A DNA stretch of 57,219 bases from Alphaproteobacteria bacterium. GTDB lineage: Bacteria; Pseudomonadota; Alphaproteobacteria; Micavibrionales; Micavibrionaceae. The notes beneath the pieces were generated by a model. That model worked only from the letters and a program-made list of their open reading frames with translations. It searched no databases and was not told the DNA's origin. Below, in pieces: positions 8,261 through 42,446 of this stretch; position 1 is the stretch's first letter, and each line of letters opens with the position of its first letter. A program made the position numbers and the translations under genes. The stretch covers positions 1,424 to 58,642 of the forward strand of contig JAEUKO010000002.1 of the NCBI GenBank assembly GCA_016794285.1, given 5' to 3'.

Positions 8261-8938
8261 ATGTCTCATCAACGCGGGAATATTCTTTTCTATGTTTTAA
8301 TCGGCATTGTTCTGGTGGGTCTTCTAACTGTCGCCCTGCGCAATACAGGAAACATGAAAGACAATATAGACTCGGAGAATTTAGTTATCCGCGCCGGAGA
8401 AGTACAAAGGCACGCTGGCGAAGTCGAAAAAGCCGTTGGAATTCTCATTGGCAACCATGTCAGTGAAAGCGATATTCGTTTCGCCCACCCCGATGCTCCA
8501 GCTGAATACGGAACCATCACCACCAACCCAACATTTCAGGTTTTCTCAGAAACGGGTGGAATGGCAACTTACAGGCTTCCACCTAGTGGAGTAAATGATG
8601 GGAGTAAATGGGAGTTCTATGGCACCAGCGATATTCCCGAAGTCGGGTCTGACCAATCAGAATTGATTGCTGTTCTGCCTAACGTTACGCAAGAATTCTG
8701 CAAAGTAATAAACGCTCAATTAGGCTTTACCGCTGGAACGCAACCTCTTGATGACTCAAGTGGAGCTTCCCCTGATTGTGTCCAAGGAGCTGCCGTCAAC
8801 CGCTTTACTGGAACTTTTGATACAACGCCCAATCTGCTCGACAAGACAACCTTCAGCGTCTTGCCCTCTTACCAAGGGTGTGTGACGTGCGCGAGCGACA
8901 ACTCCTATCACTACTTCCATGTCTTGTTGTCTCGATAA
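8261..8938 (+). CDS. pilin-like protein, uncharacterised family (paralogue 1)
   Basis: N-terminus MSHQRGNILFYVLIGIVLVGLLTVAL resembles a prepilin leader plus hydrophobic helix but lacks Glu5. It has 4 Cys in the C-terminal half, shares blocks with 12339..13016, and has a GGAAAGGGA RBS. Confidence 0.6.
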   Translation: MSHQRGNILFYVLIGIVLVGLLTVALRNTGNMKDNIDSENLVIRAGEVQRHAGEVEKAVGILIGNHVSESDIRFAHPDAPAEYGTITTNPTFQVFSETGGMATYRLPPSGVNDGSKWEFYGTSDIPEVGSDQSELIAVLPNVTQEFCKVINAQLGFTAGTQPLDDSSGASPDCVQGAAVNRFTGTFDTTPNLLDKTTFSVLPSYQGCVTCASDNSYHYFHVLLSR

Positions 8939-12338: not shown

Positions 12339-13016
12339 TTACCGTTCAATCAGCACTTCGTAGTAAACATATTTATTGAGGGTTGTTGATCGGTAACAAA
12401 AGGCCGCCTTCCCGTTCAAAGCCGGATCAGAAATGGTGGCGGCGTAGCTAAAAGTTCCGGTAAAGACTGTTGTTTCTCCGGCAACTGTGATGTTAACGGG
12501 TGTGGCCAAACTTCCCGAGAACCCTTTATTGATATAACGACAAGTGTTTAGGCTAATTCCGGGCAAAAAGGCAACAAGATCAGACCCCGCCCCTGTTCCA
12601 TCTGTGCTGCCTATACCATCAATTTCGAGTGATCCGTTAAAAATCCAATCTGATCCGTCATTTACTCCTGCTGGAACAGCCTGATAGGGAATGGCCCCCC
12701 CTTGTGGATGGAAAACTTCCTTTTCGGGGGCCGTACCAAAAACTCCATAAGCAACCGTTCCCGGGTGCGCAAAGCTAATATCAGCGTTGGTGAGCTCATG
12801 AGAGAGTTTGATTCGGACAATGGCCTGACGAACAGATGTTGGAAATTGGTGGATATAGACACTTTCGACACGGTTTTTTTCTTCGCTAACCCCCCCACTT
12901 CCTTGGCGCATGGTCTGTGAAATCGCGTAGGAGAGGGCCGCAAACAAGGCCACGGCAATCAAAATAAGGAATAAGACGTTCCCCTTTTGAGGGGAAAAAG
13001 AGTCATGGCTCATCAT
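12339..13016 (-). CDS. pilin-like protein, uncharacterised family (paralogue 2)
   Basis: N-terminus (M)MSHDSFSPQKGNVLFLILIAVALFAALSYAI. Shares DISFAHP..YG, GG..Y...P.GVNDGS.W.F.G, L(V/I)A(F/V)LP, C..IN and FTGTF blocks with 8261..8938. Start is uncertain (TTG 13025, ATG 13016 or 13013). Confidence 0.6.
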   Translation of the reverse strand: MMSHDSFSPQKGNVLFLILIAVALFAALSYAISQTMRQGSGGVSEEKNRVESVYIHQFPTSVRQAIVRIKLSHELTNADISFAHPGTVAYGVFGTAPEKEVFHPQGGAIPYQAVPAGVNDGSDWIFNGSLEIDGIGSTDGTGAGSDLVAFLPGISLNTCRYINKGFSGSLATPVNITVAGETTVFTGTFSYAATISDPALNGKAAFCYRSTTLNKYVYYEVLIER

Positions 13017-13148
13017 AATGGCCAAGATTATGAGGGTTTTCCCTGTGAAGCAACTGTTTTTATTTGCACTTTACAAGGTGACCAAGTGAAAATCGCATGA
13101 TAAAAGGGCTCAGTAAATCCAGAGACAGAATCGGAAGTGTAAGATCAG

Positions 13149-14585: not shown

Positions 14586-15542
14586 CTACCTAGCTGAAGC
14601 GATCTGGGTTGAGCTGCCCCGACTTGTATGAAGCCACCACGCGCTCCGATTGATTGAAAAGATCGGTTTATAATGCGAGATGGAATCTGCGCGCCTCATT
14701 TGCTTGATCTGGTTGTCGAGCACCATTGGACCGGACTCGGTATAAACAATCAAAATCGCATGAGGGATACCCTTTTGGGTGTCTTTCACCACCGCCAACC
14801 TCATATGGCTATCTGGCACTCCAAGTGCTCGCAAGGATGCGTATTTGGTAATGGCAAAATCTTCGCAGTCCCCTCCTCTGGAGAAGAATTCGGTTGGAGT
14901 CTCCCAGTAATCTGACTTACCCCAGTTCCGGCTATCGCTGATATAGCGGACGCGGTTCACCATGTCGTTGACGTTGGAAGCCATCTGTTCAATCGGCTGG
15001 TTTTTGAACTGCCGAAGATTATCTTTCCATTCGACTAGGACGGCATTGCTCGAAGCAGACCGAGCCTCATAGCTAAATCGGTCAAAGACTGATTTCCACT
15101 TTGAAAAAGCACTCAGGTCGGTTGATCTCCGCTCTCCTGTCCCAAACAGAGCGTAGTCTGTAACATCAGGACTATAGGAAACTTGAACCATTCCATTCTG
15201 TGACCCCTCCTTCAGCGAGGATCCCGCCCATGCAGGCCGCGTGTGCAGAGATGAAGCCGATACGAGAAGAGTGACCACAGCCGCTCCGCAGCGCAAGGCA
15301 GCTTGAGTTGCGAGCGTCCAGCGAATCTGACTTTGCGTAACCCACCCTTCCTCAACCAGAATCTGACCGAGAGGCCGCCGTTCTAACTGTTGACGCGACA
15401 AAGCCTCCTTGAGTTGCCACGGAGAGAGCCTCTCGCGCAGAACCAGCAACTCTCCCATCCGGTTGCGGTCGAGATAGGCCTTGATGTTCCTCAGAATTCC
15501 CTTGTTTTTTGGCAGATACACGCCATCATTGTTTTTATCCAT
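14586..15542 (-). CDS. MshEN-like (T2SSE_N) tandem motif + single TM + BTLCP/LapG-like transglutaminase-fold cysteine protease
   Basis: Residues 28-80 are RMGELLVLRERLSPWQLKEALSRQ-QLERR-PLGQILVEEGWVTQSQIRWTLATQ. The hydrophobic span is AALRCGAAVVTLLVSASSL. The C-terminal domain carries GGDCEDFAITKY, IPHAILIV and VLDNQ (Cys226/His261/Asp276). Confidence 0.7.
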   Translation of the reverse strand: MDKNNDGVYLPKNKGILRNIKAYLDRNRMGELLVLRERLSPWQLKEALSRQQLERRPLGQILVEEGWVTQSQIRWTLATQAALRCGAAVVTLLVSASSLHTRPAWAGSSLKEGSQNGMVQVSYSPDVTDYALFGTGERRSTDLSAFSKWKSVFDRFSYEARSASSNAVLVEWKDNLRQFKNQPIEQMASNVNDMVNRVRYISDSRNWGKSDYWETPTEFFSRGGDCEDFAITKYASLRALGVPDSHMRLAVVKDTQKGIPHAILIVYTESGPMVLDNQIKQMRRADSISHYKPIFSINRSAWWLHTSRGSSTQIASAR

Positions 15543-15725
15543 GATGTCCCCTTTTGGTCCCTATATTTTACCATTTCGTTATTTTTTATGTGCTTTAATT
15601 TTGCACTTTTTCTTACCCTCTCATTAAACACTGGAAAGATTGACAAAGCATAAATATTCTGTCAAAAGAAGTCAGGTTTCCCTGTTTTTTTATGTTTTGG
15701 CGATACCTCTATCCGGAGTCCCTTG

Positions 15726-17270
15726 ATGACCTCTTCCGAAAATATGACAGAATTGGTTTCCCGCATGGGAAATGTCCGTGTTTTGGTGATTGGCGACTTA
15801 ATGCTGGACCGATTTGTCTATGGTGATGTTGAACGAATTTCACCAGAAAGCCCCGTTCCTGTCTTGGTTGTCCGTCGTGAAAGTCGGATGTTGGGAGGAA
15901 GTGGGAATGTTTTGGCCAATTTGCATGGCCTTGGTGTGCGAGCCGAACTTCTCTCGGTTATCGGAGAGGATTATGAGGGAGACCTTTTAAGGGGATTGGT
16001 TGAAGCCGCTGGAGCTAGCGGAGACCACCTCATTCGTCTGCCAGAAATTCCCACAACCATAAAAACCCGCTTTCTGGCTGGACACCAACAATTGCTCCGT
16101 GTCGATCAAGAACGGAATACACCTCTTCCCAAAGGGACAGAGGACAAGATTATTGAATCCCTCACAAATTTGCTTGTATCTCAAGACGCACTCATTCTCT
16201 CTGACTACGGAAAGGGAGTTCTGACCCCCACTGTCCTTGATTTGGCAATATCTCTGGCACAGAAAAAAGGAATCCCTATCCTTGTTGATCCAAAAGGCAA
16301 TGACTACAAAAAGTATAAGGGAGCCAGTGTGGTTACGCCAAACCGCAAGGAGCTCTCGGAAGCCGCGGGAGGTCTTGCCACGTCTGAAGATGATGATGTC
16401 GTGATAGCGGCTGAAACAGTCATACGCGCTTCTGGAATTGCAAGTGTTGTGGCAACACGTTCTCAGGACGGGATGACGATTCTTCAACAAAACACAGAAA
16501 CAGGAACCTTCGAAAGACCTGTCCATCTGCGGACGCGGGCGCAGGAAGTTTATGATGTTTCAGGTGCAGGAGACACGGTGATTGCTACGATTGCGGCGGC
16601 ACTGGCGGCAGGAGCCAATCTCGTCGAGGCAGCAAGTCTTGCGAATATTGCGGCTGGCATTGTTGTTGCCAAAATTGGGACGGCTTCCATTCGCAGCCGT
16701 GAACTGCAAGAAGCTATCAAACAGCAAGATTCACCTAAGGAAATACTCAGAGGGGATACCGGAACAATGGCGCGGTCTTGTCAGGCCCCTGTTTGCGACT
16801 GGGAGGAAGCGAAGGAAGAAGTTGACCGCTGGCGGGCTCGTGGGCTCAAAATAGGGTTTACCAACGGATGTTTCGATATTTTACACGCCGGACACGTCAA
16901 CTACCTGAACAAGGCCCGAAAATTTTGTGATCGTCTGGTTTTAGGCTTGAATCACGACACCTCAGTTCATTTGCTCAAAGGGCCGACAAGGCCTGTTAAC
17001 GATCAGATTTCACGAGCAGCGGTGCTGGGAGCCTTAGGAGCCGTGGATATGGTTGTCTTTTTTGGGGCCCAAACCGAAGGAGAGGACAATACTGCCAAGA
17101 CTCTCATCCAACTTTTGCAACCGGACTACTACTTCAAAGGGGCTGATTACACGATAGACCGCATTCCCGAAGCTGGGATTGTGGCTTCCTACGGCGGCGA
17201 GGTTCGTTTGGTTCCCCTGACCGAGGGGCTTTCAACCACGGATATTATTGCCAAAATCGTCAAGAGCTGA
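15726..17270 (+). CDS. hldE: bifunctional D-beta-D-heptose 7-phosphate kinase / D-beta-D-heptose 1-phosphate adenylyltransferase
   Basis: N-terminal ribokinase-like domain (VSGAGDTVIA) and C-terminal cytidylyltransferase domain (GFTNGCFDILHAGHVNYL). Confidence 0.92.
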   Translation: MTSSENMTELVSRMGNVRVLVIGDLMLDRFVYGDVERISPESPVPVLVVRRESRMLGGSGNVLANLHGLGVRAELLSVIGEDYEGDLLRGLVEAAGASGDHLIRLPEIPTTIKTRFLAGHQQLLRVDQERNTPLPKGTEDKIIESLTNLLVSQDALILSDYGKGVLTPTVLDLAISLAQKKGIPILVDPKGNDYKKYKGASVVTPNRKELSEAAGGLATSEDDDVVIAAETVIRASGIASVVATRSQDGMTILQQNTETGTFERPVHLRTRAQEVYDVSGAGDTVIATIAAALAAGANLVEAASLANIAAGIVVAKIGTASIRSRELQEAIKQQDSPKEILRGDTGTMARSCQAPVCDWEEAKEEVDRWRARGLKIGFTNGCFDILHAGHVNYLNKARKFCDRLVLGLNHDTSVHLLKGPTRPVNDQISRAAVLGALGAVDMVVFFGAQTEGEDNTAKTLIQLLQPDYYFKGADYTIDRIPEAGIVASYGGEVRLVPLTEGLSTTDIIAKIVKS

Positions 17271-22503: not shown

Positions 22504-23382
22504 TTAGTCTTGAACTTGTTTACTCAAAAGGCTCCATGCCCCCAGAATTTCTAAAGCCCTTGCGTGTCCTAGTTGCTTCATAGGAACAGGCCGAACCTGC
22601 TTTGGGGGCCGAATTTGTGCCACGTCTTCGTGAGAAAGGGCGTAGTAAACTTGGGCCAGACCAACGCTTTCAATCAGGGCCTGACCAATGGCTGTCGGTT
22701 GGCCGCTGCAGAAAAGGCTGCACGTTTCAAGGTGGGATTGGTTGAGGGCTTCTGTGGCTTGCCGTATAGCCATGACCTCTGCATGGGCAATAGGATCACA
22801 GCGAGACGTCATTCCGCTTGCGCCTTCTCCTAATATACGGCCATTTTCATCGGCAACAACAGCTCCAAACGGCCCGCCTTTTCGTGTTTCAGCATTTCGT
22901 AAACCAAGTTCTAAGGCCCGATCCATCAATTCCTCTGGGGTGTAGCTATGATCTCTGCTCATAATGCTGACCACTATAGGGGAAGAAGGGGCTGTTTTTT
23001 TCTCTTCGGGACCTGCTTCGCGGAGAGTTCGCTTCACCGCTTCGCCCAAGCGTTTGGGGTCCACTGGTTTTTTCAAATATCTGGAAATTCCGTGACGCGT
23101 AATTTGCATGAGCAAATCGGACGTTTCCTCATCTGTTACCAAAATCATAGGGATTTTCTTGCCACTGTTGCGCAGGGTGCGCGCAAAATCAAATCCCCCA
23201 TGCGGATCCATGAAGTGGTCAATAATGGCAACAGACACCGAATGTTCTTTTACGACTTTCAAGGCACTACCGCCATCAATCGCTTGAATAACGCGATAGC
23301 CCGAGGCCAGCAAGGTGTTGGCCATTTGTTCTCGTGAAACTTGGTTATTATCCGCAATCAGGACCAGCGGCGAATCATCCAT
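22504..23382 (-). CDS. response-regulator receiver domain fused to guanine-deaminase-like (CDA-fold) domain lacking the PCxxC zinc ligands
   Basis: REC features: LIADNN, IID (Asp55), ILVTD, LKKP. The C-terminal half, GGPFGAVVADENGRILGEG....DPIAHAEVMAIR, aligns with GuaD-type deaminases, but CEPCPMC is replaced by SGQPTAIG (22684-22701). Confidence 0.7.
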   Translation of the reverse strand: MDDSPLVLIADNNQVSREQMANTLLASGYRVIQAIDGGSALKVVKEHSVSVAIIDHFMDPHGGFDFARTLRNSGKKIPMILVTDEETSDLLMQITRHGISRYLKKPVDPKRLGEAVKRTLREAGPEEKKTAPSSPIVVSIMSRDHSYTPEELMDRALELGLRNAETRKGGPFGAVVADENGRILGEGASGMTSRCDPIAHAEVMAIRQATEALNQSHLETCSLFCSGQPTAIGQALIESVGLAQVYYALSHEDVAQIRPPKQVRPVPMKQLGHARALEILGAWSLLSKQVQD

Positions 23383-41647: not shown

Positions 41648-41732
41648 TTTAACATAGTATTAAATTTTTCTTGATTTTTGCAAAGAAAACAGATAGAAAA
41701 TCCTTAATCAATTCTTAAAAGAGGGTGTTTTC

Positions 41733-42446
41733 ATGACAAATTTCAAAGAAGCTTTTTCTGCTGTTGCGTTGGCTACGACTGTTGGCTTGACAGGCTGCGC
41801 AGGAACTCATTTCACTGCTCCTTTCAGCGATCCGCGGGATTCGACGGTGGTCAATCGTCCGGAAGATCGGGGAGTCAAAGAATATGGCTCACAAGCTTGT
41901 CGGGAAGCAGGCATTGATGTCGTCCCGGGGCATAGTCTTGGGTCATACCGTGGAGGTGGGGCCTATTATTCACGCTACTCTGGGTTTTACAATAGAAACC
42001 AACAGTTTCGTCAATCTGTCTCGGTGACATCAGGGAGTGGACAGCCTTATACGCTGGTCCCTTCGAGTGAAAGAAGTCGGCTTTTTGAAATCGCAGGGAC
42101 AGTCGCTGGGGCTTTGGCAGGGGGGGGTGCAGCTCATGGTCGCCGCTCAACCCAACAGGGCCTTGCTGGAGTTATTGGAGCGGCTGTTGGAAATGTGGCG
42201 GGCCGGATGGCCGATAGTTTCTGGGAAGTAGGTGCCCGTGAGGCCATTGATCGCTGCCGAGGCGATGTCATGGGCGGAGCCTATGATCGGCCCCAGCATC
42301 TAGGGCCAGGTTACCAGCAGCAGGGCTACCAGTATCAGCAGCCGCAGGTCATTCAAGGATATCGGCCTATTGGAGAACCCGCCCCGGGGACAGTTCCAGC
42401 TGTTGAATGTCCTCAAGGGTTTACTTGTATCCCACAACGTCGCTAA
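41733..42446 (+). CDS. lipoprotein with glycine-zipper segment and Q/Y-rich C-terminal region
   Basis: Lipobox LTGC. GTVAGALAGGGAAHG...GLAGVIGAAVGNVAG is a glycine zipper resembling the 17-kDa antigen type. The C-terminus is GPGYQQQGYQYQQPQVIQGY. Confidence 0.6.
   Translation: MTNFKEAFSAVALATTVGLTGCAGTHFTAPFSDPRDSTVVNRPEDRGVKEYGSQACREAGIDVVPGHSLGSYRGGGAYYSRYSGFYNRNQQFRQSVSVTSGSGQPYTLVPSSERSRLFEIAGTVAGALAGGGAAHGRRSTQQGLAGVIGAAVGNVAGRMADSFWEVGAREAIDRCRGDVMGGAYDRPQHLGPGYQQQGYQYQQPQVIQGYRPIGEPAPGTVPAVECPQGFTCIPQRR

Follow-up and report, generated by a model that had tools for sequence, protein, structure and literature searches.

A putative cyclic di-GMP receptor unit joined to the probable export signal of a LapG-related cysteine protease in Micavibrio-like Alphaproteobacteria

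The gene and its product

The subject of this report is an open reading frame (ORF) on a stretch of 57,219 nucleotides, here called the window, from an Alphaproteobacteria bacterium of the family Micavibrionaceae (GCA_016794285.1, contig JAEUKO010000002.1, positions 1,424-58,642, forward strand). Its product, hereafter the target, combines three elements on one chain: an N-terminal MshEN_N unit, which by sequence and fold is a putative receptor of cyclic di-GMP (c-di-GMP), a hydrophobic span, which probably is a cleaved Sec signal peptide, and a bacterial transglutaminase-like cysteine proteinase (BTLCP). A preliminary description, made from the DNA sequence, had already proposed this composition. 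The peptides and coordinates it quoted for the ORF are all exact, and the domains were recovered in the claimed order, i.e., NF053729 unit, hydrophobic span and Peptidase_C93. Its view of the span as a transmembrane helix is not supported as it was stated (see below). The features are, in window coordinates:

14586..15542, minus strand: target ORF, 318 amino acids; MshEN_N, then signal-peptide-like span, linker and BTLCP protease
15462..15506, minus strand: helix alpha0, residues 13-27, NKGILRNIKAYLDRN; conserved, predicted helix 16-25, with G15 and N27 nearly invariant
15390..15461, minus strand: MshEN_N motif 1, residues 28-51, RMGELLVLRERLSPWQLKEALSRQ; detected by NF053729 and aligned to R9..Q32 of MshE
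15375..15389, minus strand: spacer QLERR, five residues; length 5 in 156 of 162 family members, as in MshE
15303..15374, minus strand: MshEN_N motif 2, residues 57-80, PLGQILVEEGWVTQSQIRWTLATQ; its last helix continues straight into the hydrophobic span
15246..15302, minus strand: hydrophobic span, residues 81-99, AALRCGAAVVTLLVSASSL; h-region either of a signal peptide or of a signal anchor, with the conserved R84 ahead of it
15225..15245, minus strand: c-region HTRPAWA, residues 100-106; cleavage by signal peptidase I is predicted after A106
15150..15224, minus strand: linker, residues 107-131; variable and disordered, 19-37 residues long in the family; model confidence (predicted local distance difference test, pLDDT) below 50 for residues 99-128
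14628..15149, minus strand: BTLCP/Peptidase_C93 domain, residues 132-305; 82.5 bits with PF06035; opens with an LFGTGE..S..LS.F.KW lobe
14862..14870, minus strand: D225-C226-E227, the catalytic Cys between two calcium-site acids; invariant (162/162)
14865-14867, minus strand: catalytic Cys226; invariant (162/162)
14760..14762, minus strand: catalytic His261; invariant (162/162) and aligned to the LapG His
14715..14717, minus strand: catalytic Asp276; invariant (162/162)

The ORF starts with ATG, and GGGGA is found six bases upstream. A downstream start at M29 can be ruled out, because residues 13-28 are conserved and the Shine-Dalgarno sequence precedes the first ATG.

Sensor unit, hydrophobic span and protease

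Judged from its sequence, the segment of residues 28-80 is an MshEN_N unit, the match being far above chance. It covers the NCBIfam model NF053729 (c-di-GMP_motif, MshE-related) over its entire length (profile positions 1-53 of 53) with an E-value of 1.6e-13 and 50.3 bits, the curated cut-off being 38 bits. NF053729 is the model that detects the unit; the Pfam profile T2SSE_N (PF05157), which the preliminary description had named for the purpose, yields no match in the target even at E<=10. The MshE-like arrangement of two 24-residue motifs separated by five residues is as had been described. With phmmer, the alignment of residues 26-83 with residues 7-64 of Vibrio cholerae MshE (5HTL) is gapless. 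The paired residues are R28=R9, M29=L10, G30=G11, L44=L25, L48=L29 and Q51=Q32 in the first motif, and P57=R38, L58=L39, G59=G40, I73=L54, L77=L58 and Q80=Q61 in the second. Every residue that is critical according to Wang et al. (L10, G11, L25, L29, Q32, L39, G40, L54, L58 and Q61) accordingly has its aligned partner in the target (M29, G30, L44, L48, Q51, L58, G59, I73, L77 and Q80). In MshE, mutation of the hydrophobic residues and glycines costs more than tenfold in affinity, that of the arginines less than fivefold (Wang et al., PMC5013675). The relaxed MshEN motif of the same authors permits Pro at position 1 (PMC5013675). E37 and R38 of the target fall outside this relaxed motif, at positions 10 ([GAS]) and 11 (hydrophobic), respectively; otherwise both motifs are present.

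The AlphaFold2 model is confident for most of the unit (pLDDT 85-91 over residues 31-80). It fits c-di-GMP-bound MshE, the comparison that the preliminary description had proposed, at 0.8 Å over 55 columns. Against 5HTL and 8PFA together (MshE and PilF GSPII-B), the modelled unit gives root-mean-square deviations (rmsd) of 0.8-1.2 Å over 53-55 columns and displays the four-helix fold. Helix alpha0, which precedes the unit, has no counterpart in MshE. From sequence and modelled fold, residues 28-80 would be expected to bind c-di-GMP.

The family alignment comprises 162 non-identical members, down to 39% identity. In motif 1, R/K28 is kept in 161 of the 162, G30 in 161, L44 and L48 in all and Q51 in 141. 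In motif 2, G59 and Q80 are invariant (162/162), and a hydrophobic residue occupies positions L58, I73 and L77 throughout, the exceptions being two arginines at L77.

Residues 70 to 97-98 form a single continuous helix in both models, so that the final ligand-contacting helix of motif 2 passes into the span without any linker. A basic residue precedes the span practically always (R/K84 in 161/162), 17 residues lie between R84 and R/K102 in 135 members, and the span is free of charge in 149, with a mean Kyte-Doolittle hydropathy of 1.65. Position -1 of the predicted cleavage site is Ala in 162/162. Position -3 is small in every member (113 Ala, 41 Ser, 4 Thr, 3 Val and 1 Gly). Position -2 varies (F, H, R, S, Y, W or Q), and so does position +1, where Pro does not occur. 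A106 lies 24-27 residues from Q80 in 161/162. The anatomy of a type I Sec signal, whose uncharged h-region usually has about 10-17 residues, is present: the basic R84, an uncharged stretch of 17 residues, and small side chains at both -3 and -1. At the equivalent place the unfused relatives of the protease have ordinary signal peptides, which are followed by the same LFG..E..S..L..F.KW lobe. A (-3,-1) pattern of this kind suggests a signal peptidase I site under strong selection; a pure anchor would not need it. The span is therefore probably a cleaved Sec signal peptide with the sensor as its n-region, rather than a permanent tether, since the (-3,-1) site is perfectly conserved amid variable flanks and the length of the h-region is fixed. 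Compared with the export signal of other BTLCPs, the span is signal-peptide-like and has the conserved A-x-A, but it lies behind a cytoplasmic unit of 80 residues.

Self-cleavage at A-x-A-G by the own protease was considered and rejected: position -2 is bulky, variable and not Ala, which does not match [T/A/P]AAG. Just past the predicted cleavage site, most family members carry a K-D-I-P...L-A-S motif, with the Pro present in 80%; the clade of the window protein is without it. The corresponding columns are residues 111-122 of the target (nt 15177-15212). The motif loosely recalls the substrate signature DP...[T/A/P]AAG and could be a candidate pseudo-substrate or pro-segment.

The protease domain is recognised by Peptidase_C93 (PF06035), as the preliminary description had anticipated: the profile, whose cut-off is 27 bits, scores 82.5 bits over residues 181-287. 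Residues 169-314 match Legionella LapG (4FGO), the closest solved structure, both in sequence (phmmer E 3.7e-24) and in fold (Foldseek E 2.8e-10, TM-score 0.71). "LapG-like" thus holds in the sense of a BTLCP with LapG as nearest solved relative, but not in the sense of a LapG equivalog (see below). The homologue of Micavibrio aeruginosavorus behaves alike, with 99.3 bits against the LapG equivalog model NF045674. In DvhG of Desulfovibrio vulgaris, D316, C317 and E318, the equivalents of D225, C226 and E227, are required for activity (PMC13090378).

Spread, surroundings and known relatives

The fusion is not a peculiarity of a single contig. Each of the best 120 database matches has a length of 303-343 residues and spans 92-100% of the query; public databases name the family members only "transglutaminase-like cysteine peptidase". 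When one genome per species was scanned, the full-length form was found in 43 loci, all of them from Micavibrio or Micavibrio-like Alphaproteobacteria; outside these loci the matches extend to the protease part only. The 43 loci include complete chromosomes and the cultured M. aeruginosavorus HCB189, whose copy passes NF053729 with 45.6 bits. An artefact of gene fusion or assembly can be dismissed, because 162 distinct sequences, complete chromosomes included, share the architecture. The survey of its distribution that the preliminary description had called for therefore ends with 162 distinct sequences and, as far as genomes are concerned, with Micavibrio-like Alphaproteobacteria only.

The N-terminal part, in turn, is not restricted to this protease. 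Residues 1-106 were searched against 1.84 billion cluster representatives, which gave 1203 matches at E<=1e-3, of which the best 150 were examined. In 69 of these 150, one to five MshEN_N units abut a signal-peptide-like span. A canonical lipobox is present in 12 of the 69, with the Cys about 20 residues past the last motif Gln. The cargo behind the junction is Peptidase_C39_2 in P0128, P0130, P0140, P0158, P0167 and P0174, fn3/Big_7 in P0180, P0181 and P0262, and a domain of about 155 residues without assignment in P0133 and others. P0140 carries as many as three NF053729 units (158.7 bits). Such cargoes are typical of exported proteins. The lipoboxes in such sister proteins make sense only with a processed span, and thereby strengthen the signal-peptide reading of the Micavibrio protein. 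The junction of MshEN_N and export signal suggests a general design; a description of MshEN_N followed by a signal peptide was not found in the literature searched. Whether MshEN_N before type I or lipoprotein Sec signals amounts to a widespread, undescribed class of "second-messenger-gated export signals" we regard as doubtful, if worth stating. If there were such a class, c-di-GMP at the membrane face would decide on targeting, translocation or cleavage of each precursor, and each protein would carry the receptor for its own release. P0134 and P0141 are further metagenomic proteins with MshEN_N before a signal peptide.

The immediate surroundings of the target gene are housekeeping: pyruvate kinase, HldE, ribonucleotide reductase, ClpA, PolA, AddAB and others. 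The gene is monocistronic, convergent with that of pyruvate kinase and divergent from hldE, from which it is separated by the following region:

15543..15722, no strand: divergent intergenic region between the target gene and hldE (15723-17270, plus strand); divergent pairing in 41/43 Micavibrio-like loci

The opposite, pyruvate-kinase side varies among these loci. HldE belongs to ADP-heptose synthesis, and the pairing may be plain synteny or a hint of a link to envelope polysaccharides, as in the case of Caulobacter HvyA. Neither a sigma-70-like promoter nor a CtrA box (TTAA-N7-TTAA) was seen in this intergenic region. As the preliminary description had said, LapD, a type I secretion system (T1SS) and a giant adhesin were not found among the window ORFs tested; the gene set of LapD and T1SS adhesin is likewise missing from the 43 related loci. 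An ABC transporter near the target gene (locus L029) was considered as a T1SS component and rejected, being of the generic MsbA/glucan-exporter type. Genes for GGDEF, EAL or HD-GYP proteins were not found among the window neighbours of the target, nor was a second MshEN_N unit found in the window.

Some other features of the window deserve mention in their own right. An ORF at 22504-23382 (minus strand) encodes a receiver domain of the response-regulator type fused to a TadA-like cytidine/dCMP deaminase, an unusual output for a two-component receiver. Two paralogous proteins of about 225 amino acids, each with one N-terminal hydrophobic span, are encoded at 8261-8938 (plus strand) and 12339-13025 (minus strand); they have no Pfam or NCBIfam match and are conserved near the target gene in Micavibrio-like loci. 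A pair of CtrA-box-like TTAA-N7-TTAA sites (41649-41663 and 41704-41718; 55 bp from start to start, 40 bp gap) lies directly upstream of an unannotated ORF at 41733-42446. In the whole window such sites occur three times, against 1.3 expected.

Several known systems invite comparison. In the Pseudomonas fluorescens Lap system (receptor LapD, protease LapG and adhesin LapA), cytoplasmic c-di-GMP governs a periplasmic, calcium-dependent BTLCP, and this is also the role proposed for the target. LapG shares with the target the catalytic triad and the D-C-E site, and it is LapG that matches residues 169-314 best, in sequence as well as in structure. Its receptor LapD, however, is a separate inner-membrane protein of the GGDEF-EAL type that sequesters soluble LapG, whereas in the target the putative MshEN_N receptor resides within the protease precursor, and LapD, T1SS and adhesin were not found among the window ORFs tested. 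The Dvh system of D. vulgaris has a BTLCP, DvhG, outside the Gammaproteobacteria, and yet another type of receptor, DvhD, with dCache-PAS-HD-GYP architecture (PMC13090378). DvhG has an N-terminal transmembrane helix, comparable to the hydrophobic span of the target, and a long disordered linker; unlike the target, it lacks a sensor of its own, its receptor is separate, and most of its orthologues have plain signal peptides (PMC13090378).

The MshE and PilF GSPII domains (PMC5013675, PMC11731258) have in common with the target the 24+5+24 motif pair and the four-helix fold, at about 1 Å rmsd. There, however, the unit has MshEN_C behind it and lies on the same side of the membrane as the cytoplasmic secretion ATPase that it regulates, while the target has the N-subdomain alone, with the export signal immediately behind it. 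Wang et al. (PMC5013675) listed many MshEN architectures; a BTLCP fusion or a signal peptide following the unit is not mentioned. They did list MshEN_N-Peptidase_M23, namely NlpD of Acaryochloris marina (AM1_1153; Wang et al. 2016, Supplementary Table 4). It is a table entry, with neither topology nor function analysed, and the one previous record we found in which MshEN_N is joined to a peptidase that is normally extracytoplasmic. From the target it differs in peptidase family and in phylum. In full-text literature searches (MshEN with transglutaminase or signal peptide, BTLCP, Micavibrio with Lap) an MshEN-BTLCP fusion was not found, so the architecture, which the preliminary description had not recognised as a described one, is without an account in the literature searched. 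HvyA of Caulobacter crescentus, finally, is an alphaproteobacterial periplasmic BTLCP, exported by Sec, whose effect is set by abundance and not by allostery, and in these respects it would resemble the target (PMC4241560). It differs in having a classical short signal sequence, in being regulated through transcription in the cell cycle, through translation and through instability, and in acting on capsulation (PMC4241560).

Proposed mechanism, alternatives and meaning

The reading that we tentatively prefer, with a confidence that stays a little below one half, is that the sensor serves as the n-region of the export signal of the protease, and that the amount of protease inserted, cleaved and released depends on c-di-GMP, the part that LapD or DvhD plays in other systems being taken over in this way. 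Residues 28-80 would fold in the cytoplasm as a four-helix MshEN_N unit and bind c-di-GMP there. The last helix of the unit would run without a linker into the Sec export signal, made up of R84, about 17 hydrophobic residues and A-x-A. Since the helix continues in this way, the sensor would act as the n-region and its ligand site would have R84 and the h-region as neighbours at the membrane face. What is exported would be a calcium-dependent cysteine protease of the LapG/DvhG type. The c-di-GMP level would determine, in one direction or the other, the amount of protease inserted, cut by signal peptidase I and freed in the periplasm, and the built-in receptor would make a separate LapD or DvhD dispensable. 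The freed protease would then most likely cut a type-I-secreted RTX adhesin at its periplasmic retention end, and thereby control the attachment of the predator. A well-conserved sensor ahead of an export signal implies control by c-di-GMP, probably of export or release and not of a tethered enzyme. This modifies the one-component switch of the preliminary description: sensor and protease on one chain stand, with control by c-di-GMP implied, but the permanent tether becomes less probable, because the span is probably a cleaved signal peptide, an outcome that the description itself had named as speaking against its proposal.

The closest unfused relatives of the window protein adjoin genes for T1SS and for HD-GYP or GGDEF-EAL proteins in a Lap/Dvh-like manner, which makes an adhesin the likely substrate. 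In a Magnetococcales locus (L053, 2561-8552) the unfused BTLCP lies between T1SS genes, ABC(C39) and HlyD, and the gene of a dCache-HD-GYP protein. In Roseospira (L050) it adjoins T1SS ABC and HlyD genes, in Defluviicoccus (L048) the gene of a REC-PAS-GGDEF-EAL protein and in Parvibaculum (L073) that of a ShlB/FhaC transporter. In itself, the locus of the uncultured Magnetococcales represents an adhesin-control module of the Dvh type in bacteria other than the sulfate reducers. M. aeruginosavorus has a 2892-residue RTX protein with VWA domains, encoded beside TolC/HlyB/HlyD, with an expression index of 16.9 in the attachment phase versus 0.3 in the attack phase (PMC3189940). Its genome also contains many genes for diguanylate cyclases and EAL proteins; at least 10 appear as "diguanylate cyclase domain protein" in the expression table, so the enzymes that the preliminary description had presupposed do exist in the lineage. 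In view of the loci of the relatives, the attachment-induced RTX protein and these enzymes, trimming of an adhesin by the target protease would be our best guess.

A number of observations do not fit easily. An n-region consisting of a folded domain of 80 residues, combined with a conserved basic residue at -5 (R/K102), is unusual for Sec signal peptides, the n-region of a type I signal being short. The Gly in the turn between alpha1 and alpha2 (MshE G18) is replaced by Glu37 in the target, and the Arg of the second motif (MshE R38) by Pro57. The Foldseek E-values for the N-domain, which is short, are for this reason not significant (0.4-2), though all top matches are GSPII/MshEN domains; modelled separately, residues 1-106 reach a lower confidence (pLDDT 68.5) than they do as part of the full-length model, again with non-significant Foldseek E-values. 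The protease scores 101.9 bits with the LapG equivalog model NF045674, the cut-off being 320, and hence is not a LapG equivalog. Because the gene is monocistronic among housekeeping genes, the substrate is not indicated by any local partner. Finally, control at the level of export would be irreversible for each molecule, which means that it would require turnover of the protease.

Of the alternatives, we consider a permanent inside-out switch, the model of the preliminary description, somewhat unlikely. The span would then be an uncleaved N-in anchor, and c-di-GMP would shift, tilt or dimerise the continuous helix, so as to alter reach or activity of a tethered periplasmic protease. A single helix from motif 2 to the membrane span would indeed couple rigidly, and conserved basic residues flank the 17-residue span like those of a short transmembrane helix. 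Single-pass receptors with a cytoplasmic c-di-GMP domain are also known: Alg44 of Pseudomonas aeruginosa is one chain that carries a cytoplasmic c-di-GMP receptor at its N-terminus, crosses the membrane once and has a periplasmic portion. Alg44, however, uses PilZ and not MshEN_N, its output is that of a polysaccharide co-polymerase, and its span is a stable anchor without a peptidase site. Moreover, tethering is compatible with function in this enzyme family, as is seen from D. vulgaris DvhG, a BTLCP anchored in the membrane. Yet an anchor does not call for Ala to be invariant at -1 and for the residue at -3 to be small, within an otherwise variable stretch and at a distance from the h-region that is fixed; the lipoboxes of the sister architectures imply processing; and a disordered linker of 19-37 residues offers no obvious allosteric path to the protease.

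The unit might also have ceased to sense c-di-GMP and persist on an ordinary exported protease as a structural or protein-binding module, concerned with polar targeting, slowed export or topology. Some MshEN domains, such as XpsE, no longer bind, and the Glu at the turn-Gly position and the Pro in place of the second Arg in the window protein could be taken as signs of decay. But degenerate domains of the XpsE kind lose G11, L29, G40, L54, L58 and Q61, the equivalents of which are kept in 141-162 of the 162 family members. The two Gln residues that contact nothing but the ligand are kept, too, as is the 5-residue spacer (156/162), and NF053729 scores above its cut-off. Loss of sensing therefore strikes us as improbable. 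A different substrate under the same regulatory design is an unlikely option as well, if less so; it overlaps with both preceding alternatives. The protease would then act, like HvyA, on a protein of capsule, lipopolysaccharide or envelope assembly. HvyA, an alphaproteobacterial periplasmic BTLCP, blocks capsulation; the divergence from hldE in 41/43 loci is tighter than the association with any other neighbour; and the window contains a gene of the O-antigen-ligase family, T1SS and adhesin not being nearby. However, the link to hldE may be inherited synteny, as the genes for DacC, pyruvate kinase and ribonucleotide reductase also stay nearby, and the closest unfused relatives reside in T1SS, two-partner secretion and c-di-GMP-receptor loci, not in polysaccharide loci.

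If the preferred reading of the sensor as part of the export signal is kept, its meaning can be outlined as follows. Lap and Dvh, the systems compared here, need a separate transmembrane receptor; the target family would show the receptor built into the protease precursor, and with a different fold, MshEN_N. If the span is cleaved, as its conservation suggests, control would act on export or maturation, and c-di-GMP control of such a kind is not reported in the literature searched. Gating of export, if borne out and found to be general, would amount to a new kind of control. The compact module of 106 residues may then offer a means of making the secretion of a chosen protein dependent on c-di-GMP. 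The family is present in all 43 Micavibrio-like loci found, including that of the epibiotic predator M. aeruginosavorus, whose life cycle turns on attachment to the prey and on leaving it. For these bacteria, the family would offer a concrete link between c-di-GMP and predator attachment.

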